Shown: positions 4,843 to 51,775, counted from the first letter of the stretch. The stretch: 64,000 bases of DNA from an uncultured Chromatiales bacterium (GCA_964442745.1 CAYUAI010000008.1:22337-86336), one strand, 5' to 3'. The notes: a model not told the origin generated them from the letters alone. Numbers and translations: made by a program.

Positions 4843-5949
4843 TTAGTCTGTTTTAAGTTGGTCTGTGGCAGCTGTGGTTAGTCCATCGTCAATCCAGCGA
4901 TCGACAACTGCTTTATAAGCGGTTATGAATTCACTGCGCCCGGAAAGTTTGGGGTCGATTAAAAACCCATACCCCGTATTTAATGCCGCACTCATCTCTT
5001 GAGCCGTTAGCTCCGCGCAAAAAACACGAATAAAGTCCGTTAAATCGACAATGGCTAAATCAAAATTAGCGGCGGCGATAAAATCAAGCAGATGCTTAGG
5101 CGTAGACAGTTCTGGGTCACTACGAATACCTGAAGCAATTAACGTATATTTATCTAAGTGTCCACGGTTCATTTTCTCTCTAAGATCAGGGATTCTATTT
5201 TTCCAATCATCCCGCACAGTCACTTCATAGGCGTGGGTTAATCGACCATCCAGAAACTCTTCAATATCACCACAAGTATTATCGAACTTATCAGACGCAT
5301 GTGGATGATGCGTCATAATTTCCGCCGCTATTTTTTTTCGATGATGGAATAAAATGGCCGCCACTAAAAATTGCTGTACATGCCCCTCGGATGGAATCGC
5401 AGACAACTCCATAAACAACCCAACGGCTTTAGCATAGGTTAAATAATTCGCGGGCAATGCAGGCAATGCGGGCGGCACCCGGCGAGTTTGTGCAATAAAT
5501 AAACATAAATCATCCAGCAATTGCTTCCTTTGCTGCCGGTTTTTATCACGTATCCAAGCAATAAACTCACTAAAGCGAGGATCTTTCGACAAATCAAAAT
5601 TTCGGACATTACCCTTCCATCCCAAGTTTTCACCAAAGGCAGTAATATTCTTATGAAAAGTCACATGCCGCTGGGTCAATGCAGAGGCTAAGCGTTTATC
5701 GCCATATTTTCCTCGAACGCCAATGGGAATCGCCGTAAAATTCCATGTTTCATCCACCAATGAATAGCCCAGCAAAAAAAACGAGGCTAACCTAACACTA
5801 CCGCCATGTCCGGCAAAACGCTGCTGTATCTGCTCGCTTTGCTTAACAGGCAATTGATGGGCCGCTTCATTATTAATGCATCGATCCACTTCCGCCAATA
5901 ACCTATCGACGGCTTGCTCCACCTGCTGGTTTCGGCTAGCTTTTGCCAT
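4843..5949 (-). CDS. Putative type II restriction endonuclease (368-aa partner of the adjacent C5-MTase); family not recognised
   Basis: Co-directional ORF directly downstream of the m5C methyltransferase, overlapping it by 14 bp if the start is Met23 (MAKASRNQQ…). No recognisable housekeeping-enzyme motifs. Confidence 0.4.
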   Translation of the reverse strand: MAKASRNQQVEQAVDRLLAEVDRCINNEAAHQLPVKQSEQIQQRFAGHGGSVRLASFFLLGYSLVDETWNFTAIPIGVRGKYGDKRLASALTQRHVTFHKNITAFGENLGWKGNVRNFDLSKDPRFSEFIAWIRDKNRQQRKQLLDDLCLFIAQTRRVPPALPALPANYLTYAKAVGLFMELSAIPSEGHVQQFLVAAILFHHRKKIAAEIMTHHPHASDKFDNTCGDIEEFLDGRLTHAYEVTVRDDWKNRIPDLREKMNRGHLDKYTLIASGIRSDPELSTPKHLLDFIAAANFDLAIVDLTDFIRVFCAELTAQEMSAALNTGYGFLIDPKLSGRSEFITAYKAVVDRWIDDGLTTAATDQLKTD

Positions 5950-6991
5950 CACTCTGCCCTGCCATAAAAGAGTGGTCCACATCCAACAACTTATGGGCCT
6001 GTGGCTGATCATCAAGCTGTATCATTAGCGCTTCCCCAAGGCGCTGCGCAAGCAACGGAGGAACGGCGTCACCCACTTGTGTATACCTGGACGAACGACT
6101 TCCAAAAAATGCCATGTGGTTAGGAAATGTCTGGATGATCGCACACTCTTCCACCGATAATCGACGTGCGCCAGGCACGATACCTGTCCTCGCTTTGCCT
6201 CCTTGTTTTAAGTGTGCATGATACTTAGGCGCAATATTCTGGGTATCCACCCAATGCGTCTTATATCCCCCTGAGGACGCTAGTATGGTATGGCATGGCC
6301 CATGAGGATCAATCGGCCTACCGCCTCCGTTGTATATGAGACCGGCATAAGGACTTTTTCTCAAATCCGGGTTTTGGGCAAATTTCACTGGGGAATTAGG
6401 AGGGTCGCCAATCGGCACATTGGACAAGTAGTCAGAAGATTTAGGATGCGCGACATCCGTCAGTTCACCATGACTAGGAAATGGAAATAACAAAAACTTG
6501 GATTGACTGCCCAGAATGAACAAGCGACGCCGTTTTTGCGGTACACCATAATCAGCCGAATGCAATACCATCCAATTGAGCTTATAGCCTAGCTCACTTA
6601 GCCGAAAAAGAATGGAATCAAAATAAGGCCGTGCTTTTTTCATTATTAAACCCGGCACATTTTCCATGACAAAAGCTTCGGGTTTTACTTCGTGTAAACA
6701 TCGGATAAACTCAGGAATCATATCTCTTGCATCATGCTGGCCTTTGCGCAGACCACCGAGTGAAAATGGCTGACAAGGCGGTCCGCCGATAACCATATCA
6801 ACTTTGTTACGATAATTTTTAAAGCTGACACAACGAATATCTCTATTGATGTGCATACAATGAGCATGGTGGCTCGCATAACTCGTCATCGAGTCTTGAC
6901 TCACGTCAACGCATAGCTCAGGGACAATGCCCGCTAATTTCATACCCAGCGACAAGCCACCTGGACCACTGAACAAATCGATAGCCTTCAT
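5936..6991 (-). CDS. DNA (cytosine-5)-methyltransferase
   Basis: Canonical m5C-MTase motifs: motif I DLFSGPGG, motif IV GGPPCQPFS, motif VI ENVPGL, followed by a variable target-recognition region. Confidence 0.85.
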   Translation of the reverse strand: MKAIDLFSGPGGLSLGMKLAGIVPELCVDVSQDSMTSYASHHAHCMHINRDIRCVSFKNYRNKVDMVIGGPPCQPFSLGGLRKGQHDARDMIPEFIRCLHEVKPEAFVMENVPGLIMKKARPYFDSILFRLSELGYKLNWMVLHSADYGVPQKRRRLFILGSQSKFLLFPFPSHGELTDVAHPKSSDYLSNVPIGDPPNSPVKFAQNPDLRKSPYAGLIYNGGGRPIDPHGPCHTILASSGGYKTHWVDTQNIAPKYHAHLKQGGKARTGIVPGARRLSVEECAIIQTFPNHMAFFGSRSSRYTQVGDAVPPLLAQRLGEALMIQLDDQPQAHKLLDVDHSFMAGQSDGKS

Positions 6992-8123: not shown

Positions 8124-9228
8124 AATATATTTCCAATGACATCCACCGGTTGACCACTACGCTAAATCTTGCGCTGTTGATGGTTTTGATTTACCCTTTC
8201 CTAAGCAACCTATTCAGTCGTATTGCTTGATAGTCAACCTTACGCCGCTCATCTCAAATCCTCCTTCCAGCGACTTTGAAATCATTATAAACGCTGAGGC
8301 TGAGCGATATCAGTTTGTAAAGAATTTTTCAGTTTTGATGCGAGCTTTCTCTGTAACATAGGTGGTATAACATCAAGTCCTTCCCACAGCAACACCTGAC
8401 ATCAGCGACAATGGCCACGTTACCGGAGTCTTTGGAGCGAACAAAAAATACCCAGAAAAGCATAAAACTCACACAATAGATCAGTATATATAACACATTG
8501 ACTGGCACACCTAGAAGTGTAAAATAATTATGATAAAAAACAATAGCGCCCCATAATACACAGAAACACTGAGGCGACTAAACTTTAATAAATATAACAA
8601 TAATTTTACCACTGTTATTCCGGGAAAACACCACCCTCCAACCAATCTTTTGACAATAATTACCAACTAAAAAAATAAACACCCATTAAAGATTTGAGCA
8701 ATCGCCATGATTCATCGTGCACACGCTTGACTCATGCAATTTCGCGACAAACGACGAAATAACTTGGACATATGATACTCAATATATTGGTAATTTCCAC
8801 CCTAGAATAAGACACCAAAAATCTAATACTAGACGACTGCAACCTCAAACAAATTAACATAAGGCGATAACACTCATAGACTAAAAAAATTTACTTTTAT
8901 AAAAATCACAAAACAACTTGATGTAAAATATACGCGTTGCAAATATTTTTCGACATAAAAATGTGCTTTACCCCATTTATGCTCAGTACGATCATAAAGT
9001 GAAATTTTTCACGCCAAAATTTAGATTAGATTTGGCCGTGCTAAGTATAACAACTGCATGGAGGCAGGCGTCAAATAATACAAGAACCGATTGAGTCAAG
9101 GAACGATTTAATTACCCATGTGGACGACACAACATCGTTAAATGATTTGTCGCGAATATACCTACATATTACTCGCTGTTTAAACTTGATCACATTAATA
9201 TATTGGTATTCGATGAGGTGGGGCCAAC

Positions 9229-12200
9229 ATGAATCGTATAAAAAATCAAAATATGACTATATCAAACCTGAAGTACAAAGTAATTCAATATTGGCTGAAT
9301 ATTTTCATTTGCATTTTAATTTTATTAAGCCAGCTAATTTTCGGGCAAGCATTCGCCGAGACAATATATGTGGACTCAGAAGCGAACCAGAATATGCGCC
9401 CGTTTAACAAACAAACGCTCAATGCTCAGGCCATCTTTGATCACGAGGGTATTGCTGACAACTGCCTAACCTGCCATTTCCCCAACAGCACAACCGCCAA
9501 AAAATTTAAAACAGCTACCCATACAGCTACCACCGATATTTGCGAAGATTGCCATTCCGTTTTATCCTGGCAGCCAGTTAAACGCTTCGATCACGATCAA
9601 GCATTAGGCCAATGCATCGATTGTCATGAGGGTAAAATTGCCCCCGGGAAAACAGCCAACCATATCGCCAGCAATAATGCATGTGGAACTTGCCATTCCA
9701 CGTTTACCTTCTTACCCATTAAACAAATCGATCACACCAGTGTCGTTGGCACATGTACTAATTGTCATGATGGAAATATTGCCAAAACCAAATCACCCAC
9801 TCACATTGAGACCAGTGATGCGTGTCAGTTATGCCATAATAGCCTCTCATGGTTGGCGGGCATTACCTTAGACCACTCTCAAGTTTCAGGCACATGTGCT
9901 AGCTGCCATAATAGCAGCTACGCCGCTGGCAAACATCCTTGGCATATCGACTCATCGGATGCCTGCGGCACCTGCCATGACACAACCCAGTGGCGCCCCG
10001 TTAGCCGTGTCGATCACAACGAAATAATTGGGACCTGTCGTGAATGCCATAATGGTAGATTCGCCATGGGCAAATCCGTGGGGCACGTATTATCCAGCAA
10101 TGTGTGCGAAGCTTGCCATAGCACGACAGCTTGGCGGCCTGTCACACGAGTAGAGCACAGTGAAGTCAAAGGTACCTGCAATGTTTGCCACGATGGCAGC
10201 AGTGCAATCGGCAAGCCTGTCGACCATTTACCCACCACAGATGAATGTAACATCTGCCACCAAACCACATCTTGGCAGCAAACACTTGGATTTATTCATC
10301 CGGGCATTAGCAATAACTGTGTCAGTTGCCATGATGGTAACACCCTTGCCGGTAAAAATAATACTCACATCACCACGACCGCCGCCTGCGAGTCTTGCCA
10401 TACCCCGGCAGCCTGGACAACCATTACCGCCGTTGATCATAGCCAGGGGACTGGCGATTGTTTTGATTGTCATAATGCAACAACCGCGACCGGTCAATCA
10501 GCCACTCACATTAAAACATCAAACCGCTGCGTCTCTTGCCATACCTCTGCCAGCTGGATACCGGCAACGACGATTGACCACAACGAAGTCATCGGTCGCT
10601 GCCTGGATTGCCATCATACAACCATCGCTTCTCAGGCGAAAAACCACATACCTATTCAAAACACACCCTGTGATGGATGTCATATCAATACCGCCTGGGT
10701 ACCAGTGGCTACCATGAACCATGATGTCGTCAGCACACCCTGTATTGATTGCCATGATGCGACCATCGGACCCGGCAAGTCAGCGGCCCATCCTCCCAGC
10801 TCAAATCTGTGCGAAGCTTGCCATGGGGTAACCGCTTGGCTGCCGATCCCAATCTTCGATCACACAGAAACCACCGGACTTTGCCAAGATTGTCATGCCA
10901 CCGGTATCGCTCCCGGCAAACTCAATAACCATCTACCTACCGATGAGCAATGTGACGATTGTCATGATCCCAGTGGATGGACGATAATTGTGTTTAATCA
11001 TAACAATCTCTCAGCATCTTGCATTTCATGTCATAATGATAACAACCTCCCAGGCAAACCAGCCACACACCTCTTGTCTTCTGATGCATGTAGCGCCTGC
11101 CATACCCCAAGTACTTGGGCACTGATTGCCACCCTCGATCACGACGAAGTATTAGGTGAGTGCCAAGACTGCCACAATGGTAGCATTGCTGTTAGCAAGT
11201 CAAACATTCATATTCCTACTTCGGACAAATGTAGTGCTTGCCATATCCCACTTGACTGGCAGCGCATTAATTTCATCGATCATACTGAAGTTTTTGCAGC
11301 TTGTGTTGAATGCCATAATGGGAAAACAACCCTTGGCAAAGGTAATAGTCATATAACTACCTCCGGTATTTGCGAAGCTTGCCATAACACATCTGCCTGG
11401 GTGCCGGTAACAACCATGGATCACAATGAAGTTTTAATTGCCTGTAATGGTTGCCACAATAGAGGCCTTGGGCACATTGGAAGCACCGAGAGCTGTGGTT
11501 CTTGTCATACAACAGACCAATGGGTACCAGCCCCTCTTGTCGATCATAATGAGGTAAAGGGTACTTGTGACTCCTGCCATAATGGCATTGCTGCAGACAG
11601 CAAACCTGGCGCCCATATCGTCACCCGTGCCCCATGTGATGCTTGCCACACGCCTAATCAATGGGCGCCATTAGCCACAATGGATCATACCGGTATTTCA
11701 GCCGCCTGCATGAGTTGTCACGATGGATTCACCGCCACCGGCAAAAGCTTAAACCATATACCCACATCAGATAGTTGCCATAAATGCCATGACACTAAGG
11801 TATGGGTGCCAGCAATCAAAGTCGATCACCTAGAAGTCATTGGCGACTGCTCAAGCTGCCACAATAGCTCAGCGACTCACATACGAACCAGTAGCACCTG
11901 TCAAGCCTGTCATAATACCATCGCCTGGTCACCCATTCTAATGATTGACCACAATGAGGTGATTGGTCTATGCACCGATTGCCACACTAAATCTTTAGCT
12001 CATGCCAATACCTCAATTTTTTGTGAAGCCTGCCATACCAACCAGCGCTGGGTACCCGTGCTTACCATGGATCATAATGAAGCCTTTGGCGCTTGTGCTG
12101 ATTGCCATACCCCCTCAGCAAGCCACATCAATAGCACCAATATTTGTGAAGCTTGTCATACATCCACGGCCTGGGTCCCGGCAATTACCGTCGATCACAA

Positions 12201-12309
12201 CAACGTATTAGGCACCTGCTCACGCTGCCATCCTTTGCCCGCTGACCATGACCCCACCGATGGTGCCGAATGTAATGCGGCCGGGTGCCATAACATTACT
12301 GGCTGGTAG
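9229..12309 (+). CDS. Secreted giant multiheme c-type cytochrome with about 41 CxxCH heme-binding motifs in tandem doubled-CxxCH repeats
   Basis: GAGGTG Shine-Dalgarno about 9 nt upstream of ATG 9229. Sec-type signal peptide (…LNIFICILILLSQLIFGQAFA|ET). 41 CxxCH motifs are spaced about every 26 aa with alternating half-repeats: CxxCH-x3-W-x-P-x5-DH-xEVxG and CxxCH-(D/N)G-x2-A-x-GK-x3-HI-xTS. The C-terminal site is an atypical CNAAGCH (CX4CH). Confidence 0.85.
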   Translation: MNRIKNQNMTISNLKYKVIQYWLNIFICILILLSQLIFGQAFAETIYVDSEANQNMRPFNKQTLNAQAIFDHEGIADNCLTCHFPNSTTAKKFKTATHTATTDICEDCHSVLSWQPVKRFDHDQALGQCIDCHEGKIAPGKTANHIASNNACGTCHSTFTFLPIKQIDHTSVVGTCTNCHDGNIAKTKSPTHIETSDACQLCHNSLSWLAGITLDHSQVSGTCASCHNSSYAAGKHPWHIDSSDACGTCHDTTQWRPVSRVDHNEIIGTCRECHNGRFAMGKSVGHVLSSNVCEACHSTTAWRPVTRVEHSEVKGTCNVCHDGSSAIGKPVDHLPTTDECNICHQTTSWQQTLGFIHPGISNNCVSCHDGNTLAGKNNTHITTTAACESCHTPAAWTTITAVDHSQGTGDCFDCHNATTATGQSATHIKTSNRCVSCHTSASWIPATTIDHNEVIGRCLDCHHTTIASQAKNHIPIQNTPCDGCHINTAWVPVATMNHDVVSTPCIDCHDATIGPGKSAAHPPSSNLCEACHGVTAWLPIPIFDHTETTGLCQDCHATGIAPGKLNNHLPTDEQCDDCHDPSGWTIIVFNHNNLSASCISCHNDNNLPGKPATHLLSSDACSACHTPSTWALIATLDHDEVLGECQDCHNGSIAVSKSNIHIPTSDKCSACHIPLDWQRINFIDHTEVFAACVECHNGKTTLGKGNSHITTSGICEACHNTSAWVPVTTMDHNEVLIACNGCHNRGLGHIGSTESCGSCHTTDQWVPAPLVDHNEVKGTCDSCHNGIAADSKPGAHIVTRAPCDACHTPNQWAPLATMDHTGISAACMSCHDGFTATGKSLNHIPTSDSCHKCHDTKVWVPAIKVDHLEVIGDCSSCHNSSATHIRTSSTCQACHNTIAWSPILMIDHNEVIGLCTDCHTKSLAHANTSIFCEACHTNQRWVPVLTMDHNEAFGACADCHTPSASHINSTNICEACHTSTAWVPAITVDHNNVLGTCSRCHPLPADHDPTDGAECNAAGCHNITGW

Positions 12310-12321
12310 CTCACGTCCATC

Positions 12322-12357
12322 CCTAGGAGGCTATCCAAGCATGGGAAACCTCCTGGG
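12322..12357 (+). terminator. Imperfect hairpin immediately downstream of the cytochrome stop codon (weak terminator candidate)
   Basis: cctaggagg…(18-nt loop)…cctcctggg directly after TAG at 12307-12309. The downstream tract is only weakly U-rich. Confidence 0.25.
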
Positions 12358-12453
12358 TATTTACAAATGATAATACTTAGTGAATAATAATTTTCCTATT
12401 TCTAATGGTTTGATGCTGACAGAAATAAAGCCAAAAAGATAAGGAATACGTGG

Positions 12454-13125
12454 ATGATCAATTTATCAAAGGCCAAGATCGTTGATCTTAGCAAAAAAGC
12501 AGAAACCACTCTTGCAGAGAAAAATTTGACCAATGTAGAAGCCAGTGTCATTGTGGTGTTGGATGTATCAAAATCCATGCACCCGCTATATCACAGCGGT
12601 ATCATGCAAAATGTCATTGAACGTTTGTTGGCATTAGCAATTCATTTTGACGACGATCAAAAAATAGATGCCTATGTTTTTGGCACCACCGCTTGTGAAC
12701 TGGCTCCATTAACGATGAATACGGTCGAAGGTTACATTGAACGTGAAGTGATTGCAAAACACAAAATTAACCAAGCCACTAAATACGCCACCGCCATTGA
12801 ACTAATCCATAAAAAGTATCGTGATTGCCAACAACCGGTTTATGTCATATTTATTACCGATGGTGATAATTCCGATAAAACAGAAACTAAATCGAGGATG
12901 ATAGACATCTGCAAAGCACCCATCTTTTGGCAATTTGTGGGTATTGGCAAAGAAGAATTTAAATTCCTTAACCGATTAGACGATCTATCAGGTAGGGCCA
13001 TCGATAATGCCGGATTCATGCATGTCAACGACATTGATACCATCGCAGATGATATACTGTATGCTCAATTACTGGATGAATTTCCCAGTTGGCTTAACAT
13101 TGTCAAGCAACAAGGTATTATTTAA
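12454..13125 (+). CDS. vWA-domain protein with MIDAS motif (vWA-TerF-like type)
   Basis: VVLDVSKSM is a DxSxS MIDAS motif. Downstream are FITDGDNSD and other features of the Rossmann-like vWA fold. The N-terminus MINLSKAKIVDLSKK resembles the TerD-family leader. AAGGA RBS upstream. Confidence 0.6.
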   Translation: MINLSKAKIVDLSKKAETTLAEKNLTNVEASVIVVLDVSKSMHPLYHSGIMQNVIERLLALAIHFDDDQKIDAYVFGTTACELAPLTMNTVEGYIEREVIAKHKINQATKYATAIELIHKKYRDCQQPVYVIFITDGDNSDKTETKSRMIDICKAPIFWQFVGIGKEEFKFLNRLDDLSGRAIDNAGFMHVNDIDTIADDILYAQLLDEFPSWLNIVKQQGII

Positions 13126-13137
13126 TGAACTCATCGC

Positions 13138-14511
13138 TTACAAGTCGATCAATTGAATCGCTTCGTTGATACGCTCAACAGGCATCACTTGCAAACCTTC
13201 GATGGCTTTTCTTGGTGCATTGGACTTGGCTAAGATAGCACGTTTAAAACCATGCTTTGCGGCTTCACGGACGCGCTCTTCGCCATTCGGTACGGGGCGT
13301 ATTTCACCGGCCAAACCCACTTCGCCAAACACCACTAAATCATTACCGATCGGTTTATTACGAAAACTGGAAATGGTGGCTAACACCACCGCCAAATCGA
13401 CCGCTGTTTCTGATATTTTAACCCCCCCCACCACATTAATAAACACATCGTGATCATGCATGGCAATACCCGCATGACGGTGTAACACCGCCAGCAACAT
13501 GGATAACCGGTTATATTCGAGTCCCAAGGTAATACGCTTTGGCATCGCCCCATGGCTTTCATCCACCAAGGCCTGGATTTCCACTAACAAAGGTCGACTG
13601 CCTTCGCGGGTCACCATCACCACACTGCCCGGCACCGACTGCGAATGACGTGATAAGAAAATGGCCGAAGGATTGCTGACTTCTTTGAGCCCCGTATCAG
13701 TCATGGCAAAGACACCCAGTTCATTGACTTGCCCAAAACGGTTTTTCACCGCCCGAATCATCCGAAATCGGCTGCCAGCTTCCCCTTCAAAATAAAGCAC
13801 GGTATCCACCATATGTTCTAACACACGCGGCCCAGCAATGACCCCCTCTTTAGTGACGTGCCCGACTAAAAATAAAGCAATATTCGTTTTTTTGGCAAAC
13901 TGGACAAACTGTGCGGTACTTTCTCTTAGCTGCGCAACCGCCCCCGGCGCTGACTGCAACGCACTGGTAAAAATGGTTTGGATCGAGTCGATCACCATAA
14001 TTTGTGGTTGTTCTTGATAGGCGATGCTGATGATTTTCTCGACTTGCGTTTCCGCCAACAACTTTAGTGAAGTCTCCAGTAAATGCAATCGATCCGCACG
14101 AATACGCACTTGCTGTAACGATTCTTCCCCGGTCACATACAGCGTTTTAAATTGTTCGCTCATGGCAATCAAGCTTTGCAATAATAACGTCGATTTACCA
14201 ATACCCGGGTCCCCACCAATAAGGATCACTGAACCGGCCACTAAACCACCGCCCAATGCTCGATCAAGTTCACCGACACCGGTTAAAATCCGGCTCTCTG
14301 CGGTATTGGGCACCTCGGATAATAATTGCACGCCACTTTGGTGCTTCGCGCCGCCGGCGTAACCTTCAAACGAATGGGTGCGTCGATTTTCCTTACTGCG
14401 GTCGACGCTCTCGATCAACGTATTCCACGCCTTACAATCGGGACATTGGCCAACCCACTTCGCTGATTGCCCACCACATTCGGTGCAATTATAAATTATT
14501 TTCGTTTTCAT
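13138..14511 (-). CDS. radA: DNA repair protein RadA/Sms
   Basis: C4 zinc finger CTECGGQSAKWVGQCPDCKAWNT, Walker A GDPGIGKST, KNRFG motif and a Lon-like C-terminal domain. Start placed at MKTKIIYNCTECG, because the longer ORF overlaps alr by 107 bp. Confidence 0.9.
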   Translation of the reverse strand: MKTKIIYNCTECGGQSAKWVGQCPDCKAWNTLIESVDRSKENRRTHSFEGYAGGAKHQSGVQLLSEVPNTAESRILTGVGELDRALGGGLVAGSVILIGGDPGIGKSTLLLQSLIAMSEQFKTLYVTGEESLQQVRIRADRLHLLETSLKLLAETQVEKIISIAYQEQPQIMVIDSIQTIFTSALQSAPGAVAQLRESTAQFVQFAKKTNIALFLVGHVTKEGVIAGPRVLEHMVDTVLYFEGEAGSRFRMIRAVKNRFGQVNELGVFAMTDTGLKEVSNPSAIFLSRHSQSVPGSVVMVTREGSRPLLVEIQALVDESHGAMPKRITLGLEYNRLSMLLAVLHRHAGIAMHDHDVFINVVGGVKISETAVDLAVVLATISSFRNKPIGNDLVVFGEVGLAGEIRPVPNGEERVREAAKHGFKRAILAKSNAPRKAIEGLQVMPVERINEAIQLIDL

Positions 14512-17806: not shown

Positions 17807-18727
17807 TTATGAATCCATCTTGTCGGGCTTAGCAAAATATCGACGATAATCCATCCAAGCATCTGAAATCGCAATCAGCGCTAATAAAACCATCATCGGC
17901 TTGGCAACAAAAAATAGCATGACATAAATAGCCACTAACCATGCTGCATTAGCATGGGTTTTTTCCACCCAATCATGGACCATAGCCAACCCGAATAAAC
18001 TGCAAGCCGTGATAACAACAAACGTAAGGTCGGAAAAAAGTTCACCCGGATGGCTAATAATCATGGCAAGCACGATGATGACTAGCGCGACAATAGCTAC
18101 CCGTCGATCCATTTTCAATGAAACAAATTCTTCACGAAACCCACCGGGATTGTATAATGCCGCTTGCCACCAACGCCCCAGAAACAGACTGCAAATTAAG
18201 CTAACAAACACAGCCCCAGCCACCATACCCGTCATGGAGGATGCAATCATCTCTAACATTAACTGAACATCATCAGGATCGGCAGACACCGTCGATTCTC
18301 GCAGGGTTTGTTGAAAAATATTAGCGAGCTGCTCCAGCCACCATGCCACAGGATCATTTAGCATCCCATGCACCACGATGGGAACAATGCAAGCCATGCC
18401 TGCTGCAATATAAATTGACCACGGTAAGTGCATCATTCGCCGCAGTACCACCGCTAACACCCACACGGGCATCCACACCATCACGACAAACAGCAGTGCG
18501 ATCGCCCCACTGCCTAATATCACATAGGCCAATACCGCCATCACCAGCGCCGCGATGAAGCTGATATACAGTCCATCATAAGCACCTTTACGCAAAGTAA
18601 CGAGGGCAATCACAGCGGCACTTAAATAACTTAACGGTGCCAAAATTAAAGACAATACCGCAAAAACCGTGGCCGCCATTGCCGCTTGTGCTCGACCACG
18701 CATAATGAAAGTGGCCATTGCTTTCAT
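17807..18727 (-). CDS. Conserved multi-pass membrane protein (DUF2232-like) between rpsR and rplI
   Basis: 306-aa hydrophobic ORF in the same position as P. aeruginosa PA4933 (rpsF-rpsR-PA4933-rplI). Confidence 0.6.
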   Translation of the reverse strand: MKAMATFIMRGRAQAAMAATVFAVLSLILAPLSYLSAAVIALVTLRKGAYDGLYISFIAALVMAVLAYVILGSGAIALLFVVMVWMPVWVLAVVLRRMMHLPWSIYIAAGMACIVPIVVHGMLNDPVAWWLEQLANIFQQTLRESTVSADPDDVQLMLEMIASSMTGMVAGAVFVSLICSLFLGRWWQAALYNPGGFREEFVSLKMDRRVAIVALVIIVLAMIISHPGELFSDLTFVVITACSLFGLAMVHDWVEKTHANAAWLVAIYVMLFFVAKPMMVLLALIAISDAWMDYRRYFAKPDKMDS

Positions 18728-33195: not shown

Positions 33196-33867
33196 ATGAA
33201 CCAAAATGCAAATACAATTACCAACTCTTCTGCTGCTTCGGTATTAAGTACCAATAAAGTTATTCGTAACACCTATACCTTGCTTTCCATAACGTTATTA
33301 TGGAGTGCAGCCATCGCTGGGGCCGGTGTCATGTTTAACTGGTCACACCCCGGCTTAATTTTAACCTTACTCGGATTTTTTGGCCTGTTTTTTTTAACGG
33401 CTAAAATGCGGAATACCGTCTGGGCTTTACCTTCTGTCTTTGCTCTGACAGGTTTTATGGGCTATACCCTAGGGCCAATTATTTCATCTTACCTGAGTCT
33501 GCCCAATGGCGGGCAAGTAGTTATGATGGCCATGGCTGGCACCGGTGCCATCTTTTTAGGCTTGTCAGCCTATGCCTTAACCACACGCAAAGACTTTAGT
33601 TTCATGGGTGGTTTCTTGATGGTTGGCATTTTAGTTGCCTTCCTCGCGGGACTTGGTGCGATTCTGTTCTCAATACCCGGCCTATCACTGGCAGTATCGG
33701 CCATGTTTATATTGCTGATGTCAGGCCTGATTCTATATGAAACCAGCCAAATCATTCATGGTGGCGAAACCAACTATGTCATGGCTACCGTTACCTTATA
33801 CATAACCATTTACAATCTATTTGTTTCTTTATTGGCCATTTTAGGTATTATGGGGAACAATGATTAA
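33196..33867 (+). CDS. Bax-inhibitor-1/YccA-family membrane protein
   Basis: 223 aa with seven hydrophobic helices and the BI-1-type N-terminus (…NTYTLLSITLLWSA…). Confidence 0.7.
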   Translation: MNQNANTITNSSAASVLSTNKVIRNTYTLLSITLLWSAAIAGAGVMFNWSHPGLILTLLGFFGLFFLTAKMRNTVWALPSVFALTGFMGYTLGPIISSYLSLPNGGQVVMMAMAGTGAIFLGLSAYALTTRKDFSFMGGFLMVGILVAFLAGLGAILFSIPGLSLAVSAMFILLMSGLILYETSQIIHGGETNYVMATVTLYITIYNLFVSLLAILGIMGNND

Positions 33868-45804: not shown

Positions 45805-47019
45805 CTAACGAATTAACGTATTCATATCCAAAATGGGCAACATGATCGCTAACACAATCACGAGTACCGCACCGCCCATTAATAACAACATCATTGGCTC
45901 AAACATACCAACTAAGGCAGATAAAAACGATTCCATTTCGCGCTCTTGGTTGGCGGCGGCACGATCCAGCATTTCTTCCAGTTTGCCGCTGGCTTCACCA
46001 CTGGCAATCAAATGAATTGTCATCGGTGGAAAATAACCACTTTTCTCCAAGGAGGCGGCGATATTCGTTCCTTCCCGTACTCGCTGAGAGGCTTCTGTCA
46101 CGGCTTCTCGCATGGGAATATTTCCCATCACTTGGGCTGAAATACGCATCGCATCCAAAACGGGCACCCCACTGGCCGATAAAATACTAAAAGTACGGGC
46201 AAACCGTGCCGTATTAAGGCCACGAGTCAACTTCGAGAGCATAGGAATCGTTAACAAAATGCGATGGAATTGCCGCTTAAACCCTTCAAAGCGTAAAAAA
46301 TAACTAAAGCAGAAAACCCCAATAGCTAAAAAAATCACCACCAAATAGCCATAACTGCTAATAAAATCACTCACTGCAATGAGCCCTTGGGTTAGCACGG
46401 GTAGCTCTTGCCCTGTGTGCTGAAACATTTGCACGACTTTAGGTACCACAAAGGCCAACAATACCATCACCACCACCACGGCCACAATGGTAATTAAAAT
46501 CGGGTATAGCAAGGCCAACATGATTTTTTGCTTCATTTGTTGGCGTGCTTCGGTGTAATCTGCCAACCGATCCAACACCACATTCAGGTAGCCTGAATGC
46601 TCCCCGGCTTCCACCGTGCTGCGATATAATTCCGAGAATATATGTGGGAAATCCGCTAACGCCGCCGCGAGAGTATGCCCCTCCAACACCCGAGAACGCA
46701 CTCCCATCATCATGCTCTTCAAGCGAGGTTTTTCGGTTTGCTGCGATACCGCTCGCAGAGCCTCTTCCACGGGTAAACTCGAACCCACCAAGGTCGCTAA
46801 CTGCCGGGTAATCAATGCCAGATCGGATGCATTAATACCCCGAACAAAGAGGGATTGAGCTTGTTTGCGCCCTTCACGTTGCAGCACTTCCTCCACAGCT
46901 AAGGGCATCCAACCCTGGTCACGCAAGGTCTGGCGTACTTGGCGTGCGGTATCCCCCTCTAAAACCCCTTTCTTTTCCTTACCACCACTATCTAAAGCGG
47001 TATATTCAAACGCACCCAT
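45805..47019 (-). CDS. gspF: Type II secretion system protein F
   Basis: MGAFEYTALDSGGKEKKG… with two GspF repeats and three TM segments. Confidence 0.85.
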   Translation of the reverse strand: MGAFEYTALDSGGKEKKGVLEGDTARQVRQTLRDQGWMPLAVEEVLQREGRKQAQSLFVRGINASDLALITRQLATLVGSSLPVEEALRAVSQQTEKPRLKSMMMGVRSRVLEGHTLAAALADFPHIFSELYRSTVEAGEHSGYLNVVLDRLADYTEARQQMKQKIMLALLYPILITIVAVVVVMVLLAFVVPKVVQMFQHTGQELPVLTQGLIAVSDFISSYGYLVVIFLAIGVFCFSYFLRFEGFKRQFHRILLTIPMLSKLTRGLNTARFARTFSILSASGVPVLDAMRISAQVMGNIPMREAVTEASQRVREGTNIAASLEKSGYFPPMTIHLIASGEASGKLEEMLDRAAANQEREMESFLSALVGMFEPMMLLLMGGAVLVIVLAIMLPILDMNTLIR

Positions 47020-47057
47020 AAATTGATTGGCCTATTTAATTTTCATAACCTCGCGGG

Positions 47058-48599
47058 CTAGCCCTCTTGTGTCACTCGCAACACTTCTTCTAAAGAGGTT
47101 TCGCCCTTTAATACGCGTCGCATACCATCTTGGCGAATGCTTTTAGAATGTTTTCGAGCTTGCCCTTCCATGATATGTTCGCCCTTGCCGTCATGAATCA
47201 TGGTTCTTAATACTTCATCGATTTCGATTAATTCATATATCCCAGTACGCCCGCGATAACCTAAATCGTTGCAGGCGGCACAACCGACCGGTTGATAAAT
47301 AGTCGGTTGACTCTCTGCCTCTTCACCTAAAATGCGGCAGTCATTAGCATTGGCTGTTACCAGCTGTTTACACTCATTACACAACAATCGAACCAAACGT
47401 TGTGCTAACACACCGAGTAAACTGGAGGATAATAAGAAAGGTTCAACGCCCATATCGCGCAATCGAGTCACCGCACCCACCGCGGTATTGGTATGTAAGG
47501 TAGACAACACAAGATGGCCCGTCAAACTGGCTTGCACAGCAATTTCTGCGGTTTCTAAATCACGAATTTCGCCCACCATCACCACATCAGGATCTTGTCG
47601 CAAAATGGCCCGCAGTCCACGTGCAAAGGTCATATCCACCTTGGTATTTACATTGGTTTGACCTACCCCGTCTAAATAATATTCAATGGGATCTTCAACG
47701 GTCATAATATTACGTTTACGATTATTCAAGCGAGTCAGTCCCGCATATAATGTCGTCGTTTTTCCTGAACCTGTTGGCCCCGTCACCAACAAAATACCAT
47801 GGGGTTTATGGATGATACGGTTCATCATATTAAGGTTTTCAAGCGACATACCTAGGTGTCCTAAGTCCATACGACCGGCTTGCTTATCCAACAACCGTAA
47901 TACCACCCGCTCGCCATGCCCGGATGGTAACGTCGAAACCCGAACATCCACCGCACGTCCGGCAATGCGCAAGGAAATACGCCCATCTTGCGGTAAACGC
48001 TTTTCGGCAATGTCCAATTTAGCCATGACCTTAATGCGTGATACGATCAGTGACGTAATGGCGCGTTGTTGCTCTAACACTTCGCGCAATACACCATCGA
48101 CTCGCAATCGTACCACCAACCGATTCTCAAATGGTTCAATGTGAATATCCGATGCATCCTCTTTGATAGCTTCGGTTAATAGCGCATTAATTAATCGAAT
48201 AATCGGCGCATCATCTTGGGTTTCCAATAAGTCTTGTGGCTCAGCCAGCTCTTTGGCGACACTGGACAAATCAAACTCATCACCAAATTCGTCGGCCATT
48301 TGCATCGCCTGCTGCGAGCCTTTTTCATAAAGCTCCCGTAGCATTTGATCAAATTTGTCTTCATCAACCCCATGGATTGACAAAGACTTTTGCACATACC
48401 GACGCAATTCGCTCAAAGCTAACAACGTCACTTTCGGCCCACAATAAATGACCGCGTCTTGCGGCGACTGACTAGCGATCAGCACCTGATGACGTTTAGC
48501 AAACGCAAATGATAATGAGCGCTCAACAGGTAAAGACGCTAAAATTTCGTTGGTGCTCGGCGCAGGCACCGATGGCACACTCAGCACAGGTGCATTCAT
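47058..48599 (-). CDS. gspE: Type II secretion ATPase GspE
   Basis: Walker A GPTGSGKTTT, Asp/His boxes and the C-terminal CxxC…CxxC zinc motif. Confidence 0.9.
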   Translation of the reverse strand: MNAPVLSVPSVPAPSTNEILASLPVERSLSFAFAKRHQVLIASQSPQDAVIYCGPKVTLLALSELRRYVQKSLSIHGVDEDKFDQMLRELYEKGSQQAMQMADEFGDEFDLSSVAKELAEPQDLLETQDDAPIIRLINALLTEAIKEDASDIHIEPFENRLVVRLRVDGVLREVLEQQRAITSLIVSRIKVMAKLDIAEKRLPQDGRISLRIAGRAVDVRVSTLPSGHGERVVLRLLDKQAGRMDLGHLGMSLENLNMMNRIIHKPHGILLVTGPTGSGKTTTLYAGLTRLNNRKRNIMTVEDPIEYYLDGVGQTNVNTKVDMTFARGLRAILRQDPDVVMVGEIRDLETAEIAVQASLTGHLVLSTLHTNTAVGAVTRLRDMGVEPFLLSSSLLGVLAQRLVRLLCNECKQLVTANANDCRILGEEAESQPTIYQPVGCAACNDLGYRGRTGIYELIEIDEVLRTMIHDGKGEHIMEGQARKHSKSIRQDGMRRVLKGETSLEEVLRVTQEG

Positions 48600-48611
48600 A
48601 TTGAGTCACAT

Positions 48612-50705
48612 TTAAAAGAAATCATCATCAAAACCGGTATTTTCGGTTTCATCTTCATTATTATCCTGGCTCTCTGGGGTTATCTTGGGCGGCTCAGAAA
48701 ACCCTTTATCGAGCGTACTCGATGATGGGGTGTTTTTGGGAACATTCTCTAAATCCTTGCTCACGTATTCTTCGATAGAAGGTAACAATGGCGCATCTTT
48801 GTTCGTCATAATACCATTATTATCACCGCGCACCATCAATTGCTGGGCACGCAAAAAATTATACTTACTGTTGGTCACGGCAGTCGTCACCGCCGCATCC
48901 CGTAAAATCACTGGCCGTAAAAAAACCATTAAATTGGTTTTGTCTTTGGTGGTTCGATTATAACGAAATAAACGACCAATCAAGGGCAAATCACCCAATA
49001 AAGGCACTTTTTGCACACTTTCATTCTGGTCGTCGGTAATTAAACCACCTAAAATAACGGCATCTCGGTCATTCACCAAAACGCTGGTTTTTATTCTGCG
49101 CTGGCTGGTCACCAAATTCGCCTGCCCCGCCGTCCCTGAAGTAATCGAGTCAACCGTTTGCTCGATATCCAGTTTTATGGCGTCTCCTTCGTTAATCTGT
49201 GGTTTGACCTTTAAACTGATACCAACCTGCTTCGATTTGAATGTCGTAAAAGGATTCGTGACACCCGAACCTCCCCCAGGGGATGTAAAACTACCACTGG
49301 GCATGGATACTTCTTTACCGACAAATATTTCGGCTTCCTCATTGTCCAGGGTAACAATATTGGGGGTAGACAATAAATTGGCCGCGCCTTCACCGGCGAG
49401 CGCATTAATGATGGCCGCAAAACTATAACCTCCTTCGCTAAAACGCCCTAAACCTAAAGTCAGTCCCTGACCAATCGGAGGAATCGTGTTCGCACCACTC
49501 GCAATGGTACCAAGCAAATTGACAATATTATTTGAGCCAAAACTTGAAACCCCCACCGGCTTAGAACCCGGATCACTGCCACCGGCCACCCATTGCACCC
49601 CTAACTCTGAAGTACGGCTGGATGATACTTCAGCAATCACGGCCTCCACCAACACCTGTGCTCGCCTGATATCGAGTTTTCGAATCACGGTTTCCAAGGA
49701 ACGAAAAATATCAGGGGCCGCTGTGATCACTAATGCATTAGAACTTTCATCCGCTTGAATATTAAAATTGGTGGACGCTTGCGATGTGGCACGTTTGCGA
49801 CCTTTAGTTTTACCTTTCGCTTTGGTTTTACCAACACCGGTCAATACCGCAACTAAATCTTTTGCTTTGGCGTAGCGCAAATAAATCACGTGAGTATTAC
49901 CAATTGTCTCTGAGGGCGTATCGAGATGGGCAATAATGGCTTTTAAAGACAAACGTACCGTTTTGTCCCCGCCAATTAAAATACTATTGGTCCGCTCATC
50001 CGCCACTAAGGTGGGTATTCCCACCTTCGGGTCCTTTTTTTTGGTTTGCTGACGTAAAGCGGTCAGTATTCTAACAATCTCACTGGAGGAAGCATGCTCA
50101 AGTTGTACGATCTCAATTTCGCTGCCACTGGGTTCGTCAATTTTTTTAATGATTTTCATTAACCGCTCAATATTATTCACCCGATCCGCAATGATTAACG
50201 TATTGGTTTGAGCATGCGCCGCTAAATGACCTTGCGGTGGAACCAGTGGTCGTAAAATAGGTACTAACTGGGCCGCCGCAATATGTTCAATACCCACCAC
50301 TTGCGTTACAATTTCGTCGCCTCGCCCTTTGGATGGCGTACCACTGTGTTTAGCATCAGCATCCGGTACAATTTTTATGACACTGCCCGCAGGTACCGCC
50401 GCAAATCCATGCACTTCTAACACCGCCAAAAAAACCTGGTAAACTTGTGCTTTCGTTAATTTTTTAGTGGAAGAAATAACGGTAATCTTACCCTTTACCC
50501 GAGGATCAACGATGAAATTTTTACCGGTAATTTCGGCAACCGTACCGATGAACGCGTTAATATCCGCCCCCTTCATGTTCAGCCCGCCTTTAGCAAACAC
50601 CGGCGGCGATAAACAAATCAATAACACCATCAACAAGACAGTTTTATCACCTAGTCGCCGGAGATTCACATTCATTCGAAACAATTTATTTTCTGTTGTT
50701 AACAT
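48612..50705 (-). CDS. gspD: Type II secretion secretin GspD
   Basis: Signal peptide, N0-N3 domains, the secretin domain (…VPLLGDLPLIGRLFR…) and a C-terminal acidic tail. Confidence 0.9.
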   Translation of the reverse strand: MLTTENKLFRMNVNLRRLGDKTVLLMVLLICLSPPVFAKGGLNMKGADINAFIGTVAEITGKNFIVDPRVKGKITVISSTKKLTKAQVYQVFLAVLEVHGFAAVPAGSVIKIVPDADAKHSGTPSKGRGDEIVTQVVGIEHIAAAQLVPILRPLVPPQGHLAAHAQTNTLIIADRVNNIERLMKIIKKIDEPSGSEIEIVQLEHASSSEIVRILTALRQQTKKKDPKVGIPTLVADERTNSILIGGDKTVRLSLKAIIAHLDTPSETIGNTHVIYLRYAKAKDLVAVLTGVGKTKAKGKTKGRKRATSQASTNFNIQADESSNALVITAAPDIFRSLETVIRKLDIRRAQVLVEAVIAEVSSSRTSELGVQWVAGGSDPGSKPVGVSSFGSNNIVNLLGTIASGANTIPPIGQGLTLGLGRFSEGGYSFAAIINALAGEGAANLLSTPNIVTLDNEEAEIFVGKEVSMPSGSFTSPGGGSGVTNPFTTFKSKQVGISLKVKPQINEGDAIKLDIEQTVDSITSGTAGQANLVTSQRRIKTSVLVNDRDAVILGGLITDDQNESVQKVPLLGDLPLIGRLFRYNRTTKDKTNLMVFLRPVILRDAAVTTAVTNSKYNFLRAQQLMVRGDNNGIMTNKDAPLLPSIEEYVSKDLENVPKNTPSSSTLDKGFSEPPKITPESQDNNEDETENTGFDDDFF

Positions 50706-50791
50706 TGCTAAAAAACCTTAGGTTTCAAACATAAAGGTTAGTCATACCGATATGCAATCGTGTCAATAATAAAATTAGAAGGCCTGTTATA

Positions 50792-51775
50792 TCAATTGAG
50801 TGGAACAACCATCGATTGTGATACCCCATCTCTTAGCACATCCACAGTGATTTCTGAGGCATCGGCTAAGTCTTGCATCACCTCCAAGCCTTTTAGCGGA
50901 CTATCTAAGGTAATTCCATTCACTGAAGTCACCACATCCCCTGAACGAAGACCAACATCAGCCATAATGCGTTTATCCTGACCGGGGAAAATCCGGTATC
51001 CTTGTAATTTGCCACCCCGCCGAAAAGGCTCCGCGCGTAACACATTCAGCATGGACTGCGGATCATTAATTAATTTATCTCGATAAGTACGTAATGTTTG
51101 CCGCGCCCGTGGAGACACCGTGGTAGTTGAAGCTAATGGTTGCCGGCTAGATGGACGACGTGAGGAAACGGCAGAGCGTGAAGAGCGCATATTCGAACCC
51201 GAACGCGTTTGGGCTTGTCGCCGATTATTGGTGGGCAACTGATCCTGAGGCAAACGCAGTGTCTCAAATCGGTTATTATGTAATAATATAATTCTATCTT
51301 GATGAATTTCTTTAATTATCGCCCCTCCCGGCAATGGTTTCTCATCATCATCAACTCGGTAAAACTCCTCGTTACCCACACGATCCGCAATAATCGCCCA
51401 GGAACTTCCAGGATCATTGGAGGCAAAAACACCGCGCAATGTCAAACGAAGCTGGGTATCCGGAGCAATCTTAGGCGTCGGTGGTGGCGGCGGTTTTGGC
51501 TTGTGGGTTTCGACCTGGCCAAACAAATGCAAACTCGCCACCGATTGCATCTGAAATGCATCCTCATTAGCAACTTGGGTGGCATTTTTAGTTTTTTGTA
51601 CTCTCAGAGGCGGGGCCGCCTGAAACTCTGGCGAAGGAATCACCATCCATGTCAAACTCGCTAAGCTATAGGCTACTACAATCAGTAAAACGATATTAGC
51701 AAATAGCGGCAAGCGTTCATTAATTTGCCTTAAACTAAAAGGAAACCGAATATCTTTTACGCTCATCAACCGCAT
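50792..51775 (-). CDS. gspC: Type II secretion protein GspC (TM anchor, HR domain, C-terminal PDZ)
   Basis: N-terminal TM segment, Pro-rich linker and a C-terminal PDZ-like segment, upstream of gspD. Confidence 0.7.
   Translation of the reverse strand: MRLMSVKDIRFPFSLRQINERLPLFANIVLLIVVAYSLASLTWMVIPSPEFQAAPPLRVQKTKNATQVANEDAFQMQSVASLHLFGQVETHKPKPPPPPTPKIAPDTQLRLTLRGVFASNDPGSSWAIIADRVGNEEFYRVDDDEKPLPGGAIIKEIHQDRIILLHNNRFETLRLPQDQLPTNNRRQAQTRSGSNMRSSRSAVSSRRPSSRQPLASTTTVSPRARQTLRTYRDKLINDPQSMLNVLRAEPFRRGGKLQGYRIFPGQDKRIMADVGLRSGDVVTSVNGITLDSPLKGLEVMQDLADASEITVDVLRDGVSQSMVVPLN

Follow-up and report, generated by a model that had tools for sequence, protein, structure and literature searches.

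We think it likely that the gene at 12454-13125 (+ strand) encodes a stand-alone PF10138 protein, in which a copine-like vWA domain is joined to a family-specific amphipathic N-terminal helix, that this protein would act as a MIDAS adaptor and be expressed from its own promoter, and that its position beside a giant multiheme cytochrome gene is merely inherited. Throughout, "the window" refers to the whole 64-kb stretch of DNA that was analyzed, which contains housekeeping genes as well as a gspCDEF cluster, and in which we found no ter genes. Its host is an uncultured gammaproteobacterium; the best named relatives of the RadA protein, at 66-69% identity, are from uncultured Gammaproteobacteria.

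The vWA protein and its MIDAS site

The open reading frame encodes 223 aa from an ATG start, and an AAGGA ribosome-binding site is located 8 nt 5' of the ATG (12441-12445, + strand), with a core AGG that is kept in two related loci described below, L005 and L094. The gene is under purifying selection, and is a real gene, with a dN/dS of 0.108 relative to its 91%-identical orthologue in L005. The protein matched the Pfam profile PF10138 (vWA-TerF-like) with E = 1.5e-66 and 224.8 bits, compared to a gathering score of 29.4 bits, and the match spanned residues 30-223, which correspond to profile positions 2-200 of 200, i.e., to the full domain. The protein also scored above the cut-off of the general VWA profile, PF00092 (24.6 bits; cut-off 23.8 bits), and the weaker Pfam matches below PF10138 were Copine (E = 9.5e-9), VWA_2, and VWA. 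The only other 223-aa ORF that we considered as a paralogue, at 33196-33867 in the window, was ruled out, as it encodes an unrelated Bax1-I membrane protein.

The MIDAS motif DxSxS is present as DVSKS (D37 V S39 K S41; 12562-12576, + strand) in the translation, in the alignment columns, and in the structural model, and the remaining MIDAS residues are T109 (12778-12780) and D136 (12859-12861), both on the + strand. In an alignment with 29 homologues, D37 and S39 were invariant, and S41, T109, and D136 were at least 90% conserved. We infer that a divalent cation is bound at this site. An AlphaFold2 model built on the 29-homologue alignment (pLDDT 94; pTM 0.92) has strands and helices that alternate as in a vWA domain (a Rossmann-like alpha/beta fold), with the MIDAS motif at the end of strand beta-1. 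The best solved structures retrieved with Foldseek were the copine-type vWA domains of RGLG1, RGLG2, RGLG5, and BON1 (E ~1e-9, TM ~0.7), and a profile search of PDB sequences agreed in placing copine-type vWA domains closest, while retrieving no solved member of PF10138. Although the MIDAS-containing fold is common to the window protein and to these copine-type domains, the window protein differs from the eukaryotic proteins in that it is a single-domain protein without C2 or RING domains, and the two are only 14-20% identical.

We detected neither a signal peptide nor a membrane segment in the vWA protein, whose highest Kyte-Doolittle mean over 19 residues was 0.93. Since there is no hydrophobic segment and the N-terminus is charged, the protein is expected to be cytoplasmic. 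Thus, two parts of the original prediction, that this is a MIDAS-containing vWA protein of the type found at the C-terminus of TerF and that it is a cytoplasmic protein lacking a signal peptide, were upheld.

Among the closest known systems is TerF of the ter operons (PF02342 + PF10138), which shares with the window protein the full-length PF10138 match, the MIDAS site, and an hxLxKK segment before the vWA domain. The ter operons confer resistance to tellurite, phages, and colicins. Unlike TerF proper, the window protein has no TerD domain, and the 64-kb window is devoid of TerD, TerB, TerC, and TelA: Pfam scans of window ORFs of at least 150 aa found none of the four, and the TerD HMM had no match in a six-frame translation of the entire window.

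A conserved N-terminal extension

The first 15 residues of the protein had been likened to the N-terminal signature of the TerD family (PF02342), and we found that this claim holds for the pattern of residues but not for the signature itself. The window protein starts with MINLSKAKIVDLSKK, and the canonical TerD proteins at the loci that we retrieved start with MAISLSKGQKVDLTK or MAVSLSKGGNVSLSK, such that they share [IV]xLSKxxx[IV]xLSK. In the window protein, this pattern is part of an extension of residues 1-29 (12454-12540, + strand) with hxLxKK repeats (MINLSKAKIVDLSKKAETTLAEKNL...), which the family as a whole has retained and for which an alpha-helix is predicted. The extension was conserved in the 29 homologues, with L12 and K14 each at 90% or more, and in the AlphaFold2 model residues 4-22 form one alpha-helix (mean pLDDT of 75 over residues 1-10, rising to 95-96 over residues 11-30).

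To quantify the resemblance, we counted occurrences of the pattern L.K.{3,5}[ILV].L.K, which was found in 52 of 111 TerD-domain N-termini and in 52 of 73 segments preceding a vWA-TerF domain, compared to 9/1584 in a background consisting of the first 40 residues of other ORFs at the same loci. As a pattern, the resemblance of the vWA N-terminus to TerD has an empirical p of ~0.005. An hhalign comparison of the vWA extension profile with a profile of 53 TerD proteins aligned the extension with TerD positions 4-25 (score 16.3, P = 0.022, probability 2%), and a score of 16.3 was reached by one of 200 column-shuffled profiles. In contrast to this agreement at the level of the pattern, the Pfam TerD model did not match the first 52 residues of the vWA protein even at E<=10, nor the whole protein at E<=0.01, although the same model detected the positive controls P0072 (2e-24) and a protein from L045 (5e-35). 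In TerD proteins the halves of the motif are separated by a conserved KG[GQ] turn, and GLGWD comes after them; the vWA extension lacks both the conserved Gly of the turn and GLGWD. Moreover, the two halves of the TerD motif around the KG[GQ] turn presumably form a beta-hairpin, whereas the segment in the window protein is predicted to be a helix.

Proteins in which both domains are fused were informative about the extension. In TerD+vWA fusions (P0072 and those at 30-odd genome loci), the extension follows a complete TerD domain and directly precedes the vWA domain, and the hxLxKK extension occurs in stand-alone and fused PF10138 proteins alike. Because the fusions carry it between complete TerD and vWA domains, the extension belongs to the vWA-TerF module. 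The idea that the N-terminus is the vestige of a lost TerD domain was rejected on the same observation, that fusions have this segment after a complete TerD domain. By the structural model and the alignments, the PF10138 module is one with a conserved, predicted N-terminal helix that falls outside the coverage of the Pfam model. Its echo of TerD is short and statistically detectable, but structurally unsupported, and the vWA extension and the TerD N-terminus may conceivably share an origin.

Gene order in the sister lineages

The gene 5' of the vWA gene encodes a secreted multiheme cytochrome of 1026 aa with 41 CXXCH motifs (9229-12309, + strand), in which Pfam Cytochrome_C7 matched nine stretches; the CXXCH motifs were counted on the identical gene in the same-species contig L001. 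On the 3' side, the vWA gene faces radA (13138-14511, - strand; 457 aa; NCBIfam TIGR00416, E = 3.8e-193), a convergent neighbor, and the stop codons of the two genes are 12 nt apart in the window.

The cytochrome and vWA genes were found adjacent only in the window, in L005, and in L094/L095, and L005 and L094/L095 are syntenic with the window, from the restriction enzyme, dcm, and hisC genes to radA, alr, and dnaB, at 83-88% nucleotide identity. The order in L094/L095 is restriction enzyme, dcm, and hisC, then cytochrome and vWA gene, then four extra genes (6.9 kb), and then radA, alr, and dnaB. Since the whole region is syntenic, adjacency within the clade carries no information. Just beyond hisC, the window has a Type II restriction-modification pair at 4843-6991 (- strand), and L094 and L095 have it as well; the restriction enzyme matched PADLOC REase_II with E = 1e-103, and, going by the listed coordinates, its gene and that of a C5 cytosine methyltransferase share 80 nt.

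The similarity between the window and L005 has sharp limits. It extends over 9067-13128, its 3' limit falls no more than 3 nt from the vWA stop codon, and the gene downstream differs; relative to both L005 and L094, similarity starts ~160-180 nt 5' of the cytochrome start. We had considered that L005 might hold the two genes as a mobile cassette, and rejected this, as the locus in L094 and L095 is the same stretch of chromosome, from which the window differs by an indel of four genes ahead of radA. The differing downstream flank is therefore due to an indel that separates radA from the vWA gene. In both L094 and L095 the 6.9-kb block lies between the vWA gene and radA, and the difference between the window and L094 is a clean indel. 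The block in L094 (10674-17555, compared to 13126-13138 in the window) encodes an Exo_endo_phos/phosphodiesterase, a GT4 glycosyltransferase, a 752-aa protein without a Pfam match, and a VTT/DedA-type protein.

In L005, which is from a related metagenome lineage, the cytochrome gene is broken twice by mobile elements and the vWA ORF is intact. One insertion, corresponding to window position ~10471, is a 1.8-kb element with a serine recombinase (L005:1562-3367), and the other, corresponding to ~11050, is a 1.4-kb IS630-like element (DDE_3) with terminal inverted repeats of ~28 bp (L005:3947-5325). The frames of the cytochrome fragments remain open, and the insertions are recent, as the fragments are still at a dN/dS of 0.07-0.17. 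The broken cytochrome beside an intact vWA gene speaks against dependence of one upon the other, but only mildly.

The spacer between the two genes

The cytochrome and vWA genes were correctly described as co-oriented, with both on the + strand and a spacer of 144 nt (12310-12453) between them. The hairpin in this spacer had been called weak in the original prediction, which it is not: the element, terminator-like or an mRNA 3'-end element, lies at 12322-12357 (+ strand), 12 nt past the cytochrome stop, and folds at -19.6 kcal/mol (z = -2.7). Hairpins occupy the same place in L005 (-17.8 kcal/mol, z = -3.6) and in L094 (-19.1 kcal/mol, z = -7.7), and the stems in the three lineages are unrelated in sequence, such that the structure has been kept but the sequence has not. 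A terminator scan did not call the spacer hairpin, because its U-tract is only UAUUU. With a weak U-tract and no terminator call, some read-through from the cytochrome gene is therefore possible.

Just 3' of the hairpin, a consensus scan revealed a sigma-70-like promoter candidate, TTTACA-17-AATAAT (12360-12388, + strand), which agrees with the consensus at 10 of 12 positions. Both hexamers (-35 and -10) were invariant in the three aligned lineages, all of which are close relatives. An Rfam search yielded nothing in the spacer, and only two tRNAs in the whole window. The arrangement of hairpin and hexamers suggests that the vWA gene may be transcribed separately from a promoter of its own.

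Neighborhoods of vWA and cytochrome homologues

The original prediction had further suggested that the cytochrome and vWA genes may have been co-acquired. To see whether multiheme cytochromes accompany vWA-TerF genes elsewhere, we scanned one genome per GTDB species, which yielded 407 confirmed vWA relatives, and inspected 80 of these loci up to 10 kb on each side. To these we added six loci: that of Oleiphilus messinensis (L006), with a 70%-identical homologue; four metagenome loci (L087-L090), with homologues of 53-69% identity; and a Methylococcaceae genome contig (L096), with a homologue of 58% identity. An ORF with at least three CXXCH motifs was found within up to 10 kb per side at none of these 86 other loci. 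The converse search gave the same picture. Outside the clade, homologues of the cytochrome are at most 42% identical, and none of the three loci of such homologues (L091-L093) has a vWA-TerF gene nearby. These three loci contain two to four ORFs each of 487-1653 aa with 14-63 CXXCH apiece; the window has one such gene.

Conservation of this neighborhood is thus absent outside one genus-level clade (0/86 and 0/3), and, as far as sequence data reach, the proposed partnership with the cytochrome appears to be refuted. The adjacency would best be read as an order of genes that a single clade of uncultured gammaproteobacteria has inherited, and not as a functional or co-transferred module. We note that none of the three lineages has lost the adjacency; this would fit a functional link specific to the clade, but does not count as evidence for it.

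Composition was similarly unhelpful to the idea of a shared arrival. GC3 is 0.468 for the cytochrome gene and 0.384 for the vWA gene, and both lie within ~1.4 sd of the mean for the window, which is 0.436 (sd 0.038); the two values are also unlike each other. Because neither gene is a GC3 outlier, there is no compositional sign of joint recent acquisition. We dropped composition as a means of recognizing horizontal transfer, since values this close to the mean are uninformative.

The cytochrome gene is preceded by a 1.1-kb non-coding stretch that reaches back to hisC (8124-9228), in which G+C falls to 34% in the downstream half. We found nothing in it with Rfam, and only its last ~180 nt (from ~9046) are similar to L094 DNA. 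This stretch may contain regulatory elements for the cytochrome gene. A type II secretion cluster, gspF, gspE, gspD, and gspC, is located at 45805-51775 (- strand), ~33 kb from the cytochrome gene. Shewanella exports multiheme cytochromes of its outer surface by type II secretion, and the gsp cluster may be relevant to the destination of the 41-haem protein.

The PF10138 family and its contexts

PF10138 proteins occur in two architectures, as stand-alone proteins of ~224-250 aa and as TerD+vWA fusions of ~420-460 aa. Many fusions, and some stand-alone genes of Firmicutes, belong to ter clusters of the classical kind, which have several TerD paralogues as well as a gene that, in our reading of its sequence, appears TerB-like; around other fusions there is no TerD gene apart from the fused domain itself. 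A TerD gene accompanies 9 of 40 stand-alone vWA-TerF genes among the sampled loci. The window protein belongs to a mostly proteobacterial stand-alone clade of ~224-aa proteins, whose close members have highly variable neighborhoods, in which we found no conserved neighbor. Because there are no conserved neighbors, the function of the stand-alone clade cannot be read from context.

The individual neighborhoods differ in character. An HTH-TPR protein and another vWA protein are encoded near the homologue in L087, and NERD and RelE genes are found near the Oleiphilus homologue (L006). In two loci whose homologues are 58-60% identical (L089:195-860 and L096:326-991), a 221-aa Zn_ribbon_TFIIB protein is encoded directly 5' of the vWA gene, and it may be a partner specific to that subclade. 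At L090:8067-10669, the gene for a 53%-identical homologue (P0025) follows genes for an S24 repressor, a 168-aa protein of no assigned function, and an SNase, so that it closes the lysogeny module of a prophage. The last place in a lysogeny module is typical of phage-borne genes for host protection. Homologues of the PF10138 family are also present in 321 phage records and 2572 plasmid records. None of the PADLOC models matched the vWA protein at E<=0.01, and a full-text literature search for PF10138 or vWA-TerF-like returned nothing relevant. In the Ter systems, TerF has been described as a vWA protein that forms sub-membrane structures, which would block the entry of phages or xenobiotics (Iyer and colleagues, PMC7824862).

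Proposed role and alternative explanations

In the reading that we prefer, the vWA protein would bind a divalent cation at its MIDAS site, and the cation probably clamps an acidic residue of a partner protein, by analogy to other vWA domains. The protein might then function as a metal-dependent adaptor between proteins, much like the role that has been suggested for TerF in Ter-type systems of stress and phage resistance. Its gene is probably transcribed from the candidate promoter TTTACA-17-AATAAT, 3' of the hairpin at which the cytochrome transcript would end.

We weighed this reading against three others, which differ in what they make of the neighbors of the gene and of its relatives. A co-acquired and co-transcribed pair, in which the vWA protein serves the cytochrome (e.g., in maturation, regulation, or anchoring), would account for the co-orientation, the spacer of only 144 nt, the adjacency in three lineages (window, L005, and L094/L095), and a similarity that starts ~160-180 nt before the cytochrome gene and ends no more than 3 nt from the vWA stop. 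However, this sharp end is explained by the 6.9-kb four-gene indel, with flanks beyond it that are syntenic. Moreover, no multiheme ORF accompanied the vWA-TerF gene at 86 loci and no vWA-TerF gene the cytochrome homologue at three, the L005 cytochrome gene is interrupted twice next to an intact vWA gene, the spacer contains a hairpin and conserved promoter hexamers, the cytochrome is secreted while the vWA protein is cytoplasmic, such that the products are in different compartments, and the two GC3 values (0.468 and 0.384, neither an outlier) show no sign of joint acquisition. We consider a pair of this kind improbable. It is more improbable still, to the point that we give it almost no credence, that the protein is a cofactor-insertion factor of the NorD, CoxE, or CobT type, which would act with a MoxR-type AAA+ ATPase to load metal centers into a redox protein. 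It is established that vWA proteins of that type, in NorQ/NorD and CoxD/CoxE, help in the maturation of redox enzymes, and the window protein does match VWA_CoxE weakly (E = 0.0075). Nevertheless, this match reaches 16.2 bits, below the cut-off of 26.4 bits, compared to 224.8 bits for PF10138; no MoxR-type AAA+ gene is present among window ORFs of at least 150 aa; and c-type haem is attached in the periplasm by dedicated maturation systems.

The other alternative concerns defense. A single gene for an anti-phage or superinfection-exclusion function, i.e., a reduced and mobile Ter-type defense gene that has settled in a variable chromosomal spot, is an unlikely explanation, but one with several observations on its side. 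Phages (321 records) and plasmids (2572 records) commonly carry members of the family, P0025 (53% identical) is encoded in a prophage after S24 repressor, unknown, and SNase genes, the Oleiphilus homologue is near NERD and RelE genes, the neighborhoods of close relatives are highly variable, the window has its Type II restriction-modification pair two genes 5' of the vWA gene, and Ter systems have been proposed to exclude phages (PMC7824862). Against it, the protein had no PADLOC match, the composition of the gene is not foreign, synteny is stable in three lineages among housekeeping genes, and no experiment is known to tie a stand-alone PF10138 protein to defense. We thus favor the stand-alone adaptor with an inherited position over all three.

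The resemblance to TerD leaves room for a more specific role of the extension. The hxLxKK segment ahead of every PF10138 vWA domain might be derived from, or might mimic, the N-terminal motif of TerD, and might serve as a docking or exchange element for TerF-type vWA proteins and TerD proteins, although we regard this as rather unlikely; as part of the same reading, an ancestral TerD-vWA fusion could have gained the segment when part of it was duplicated. If so, the resemblance would point to recognition between TerD and vWA proteins, or of a partner common to both, and the window protein might still take part in a Ter-like network whose genes lie in another part of the genome.

For the vWA gene itself, these results describe one more uncharacterized stand-alone member of a large family that has already been catalogued and that plasmids and phages often carry. 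For work on Ter systems, they add to PF10138 a predicted, conserved N-terminal helix that echoes the TerD N-terminus, as well as a stand-alone proteobacterial clade without conserved neighbors. The giant multiheme cytochrome is best analyzed alone, without an assumed cytoplasmic vWA partner.

Other genes of the window

One further gene in the window attracted our attention. An ORF of 306 aa without a Pfam match is located at 17807-18727 (- strand), between rplI and rpsR. It interrupts an otherwise canonical rpsF-priB/ssb-rpsR-rplI cluster, and the contigs L001 and L002, which are from the same species, have it too.
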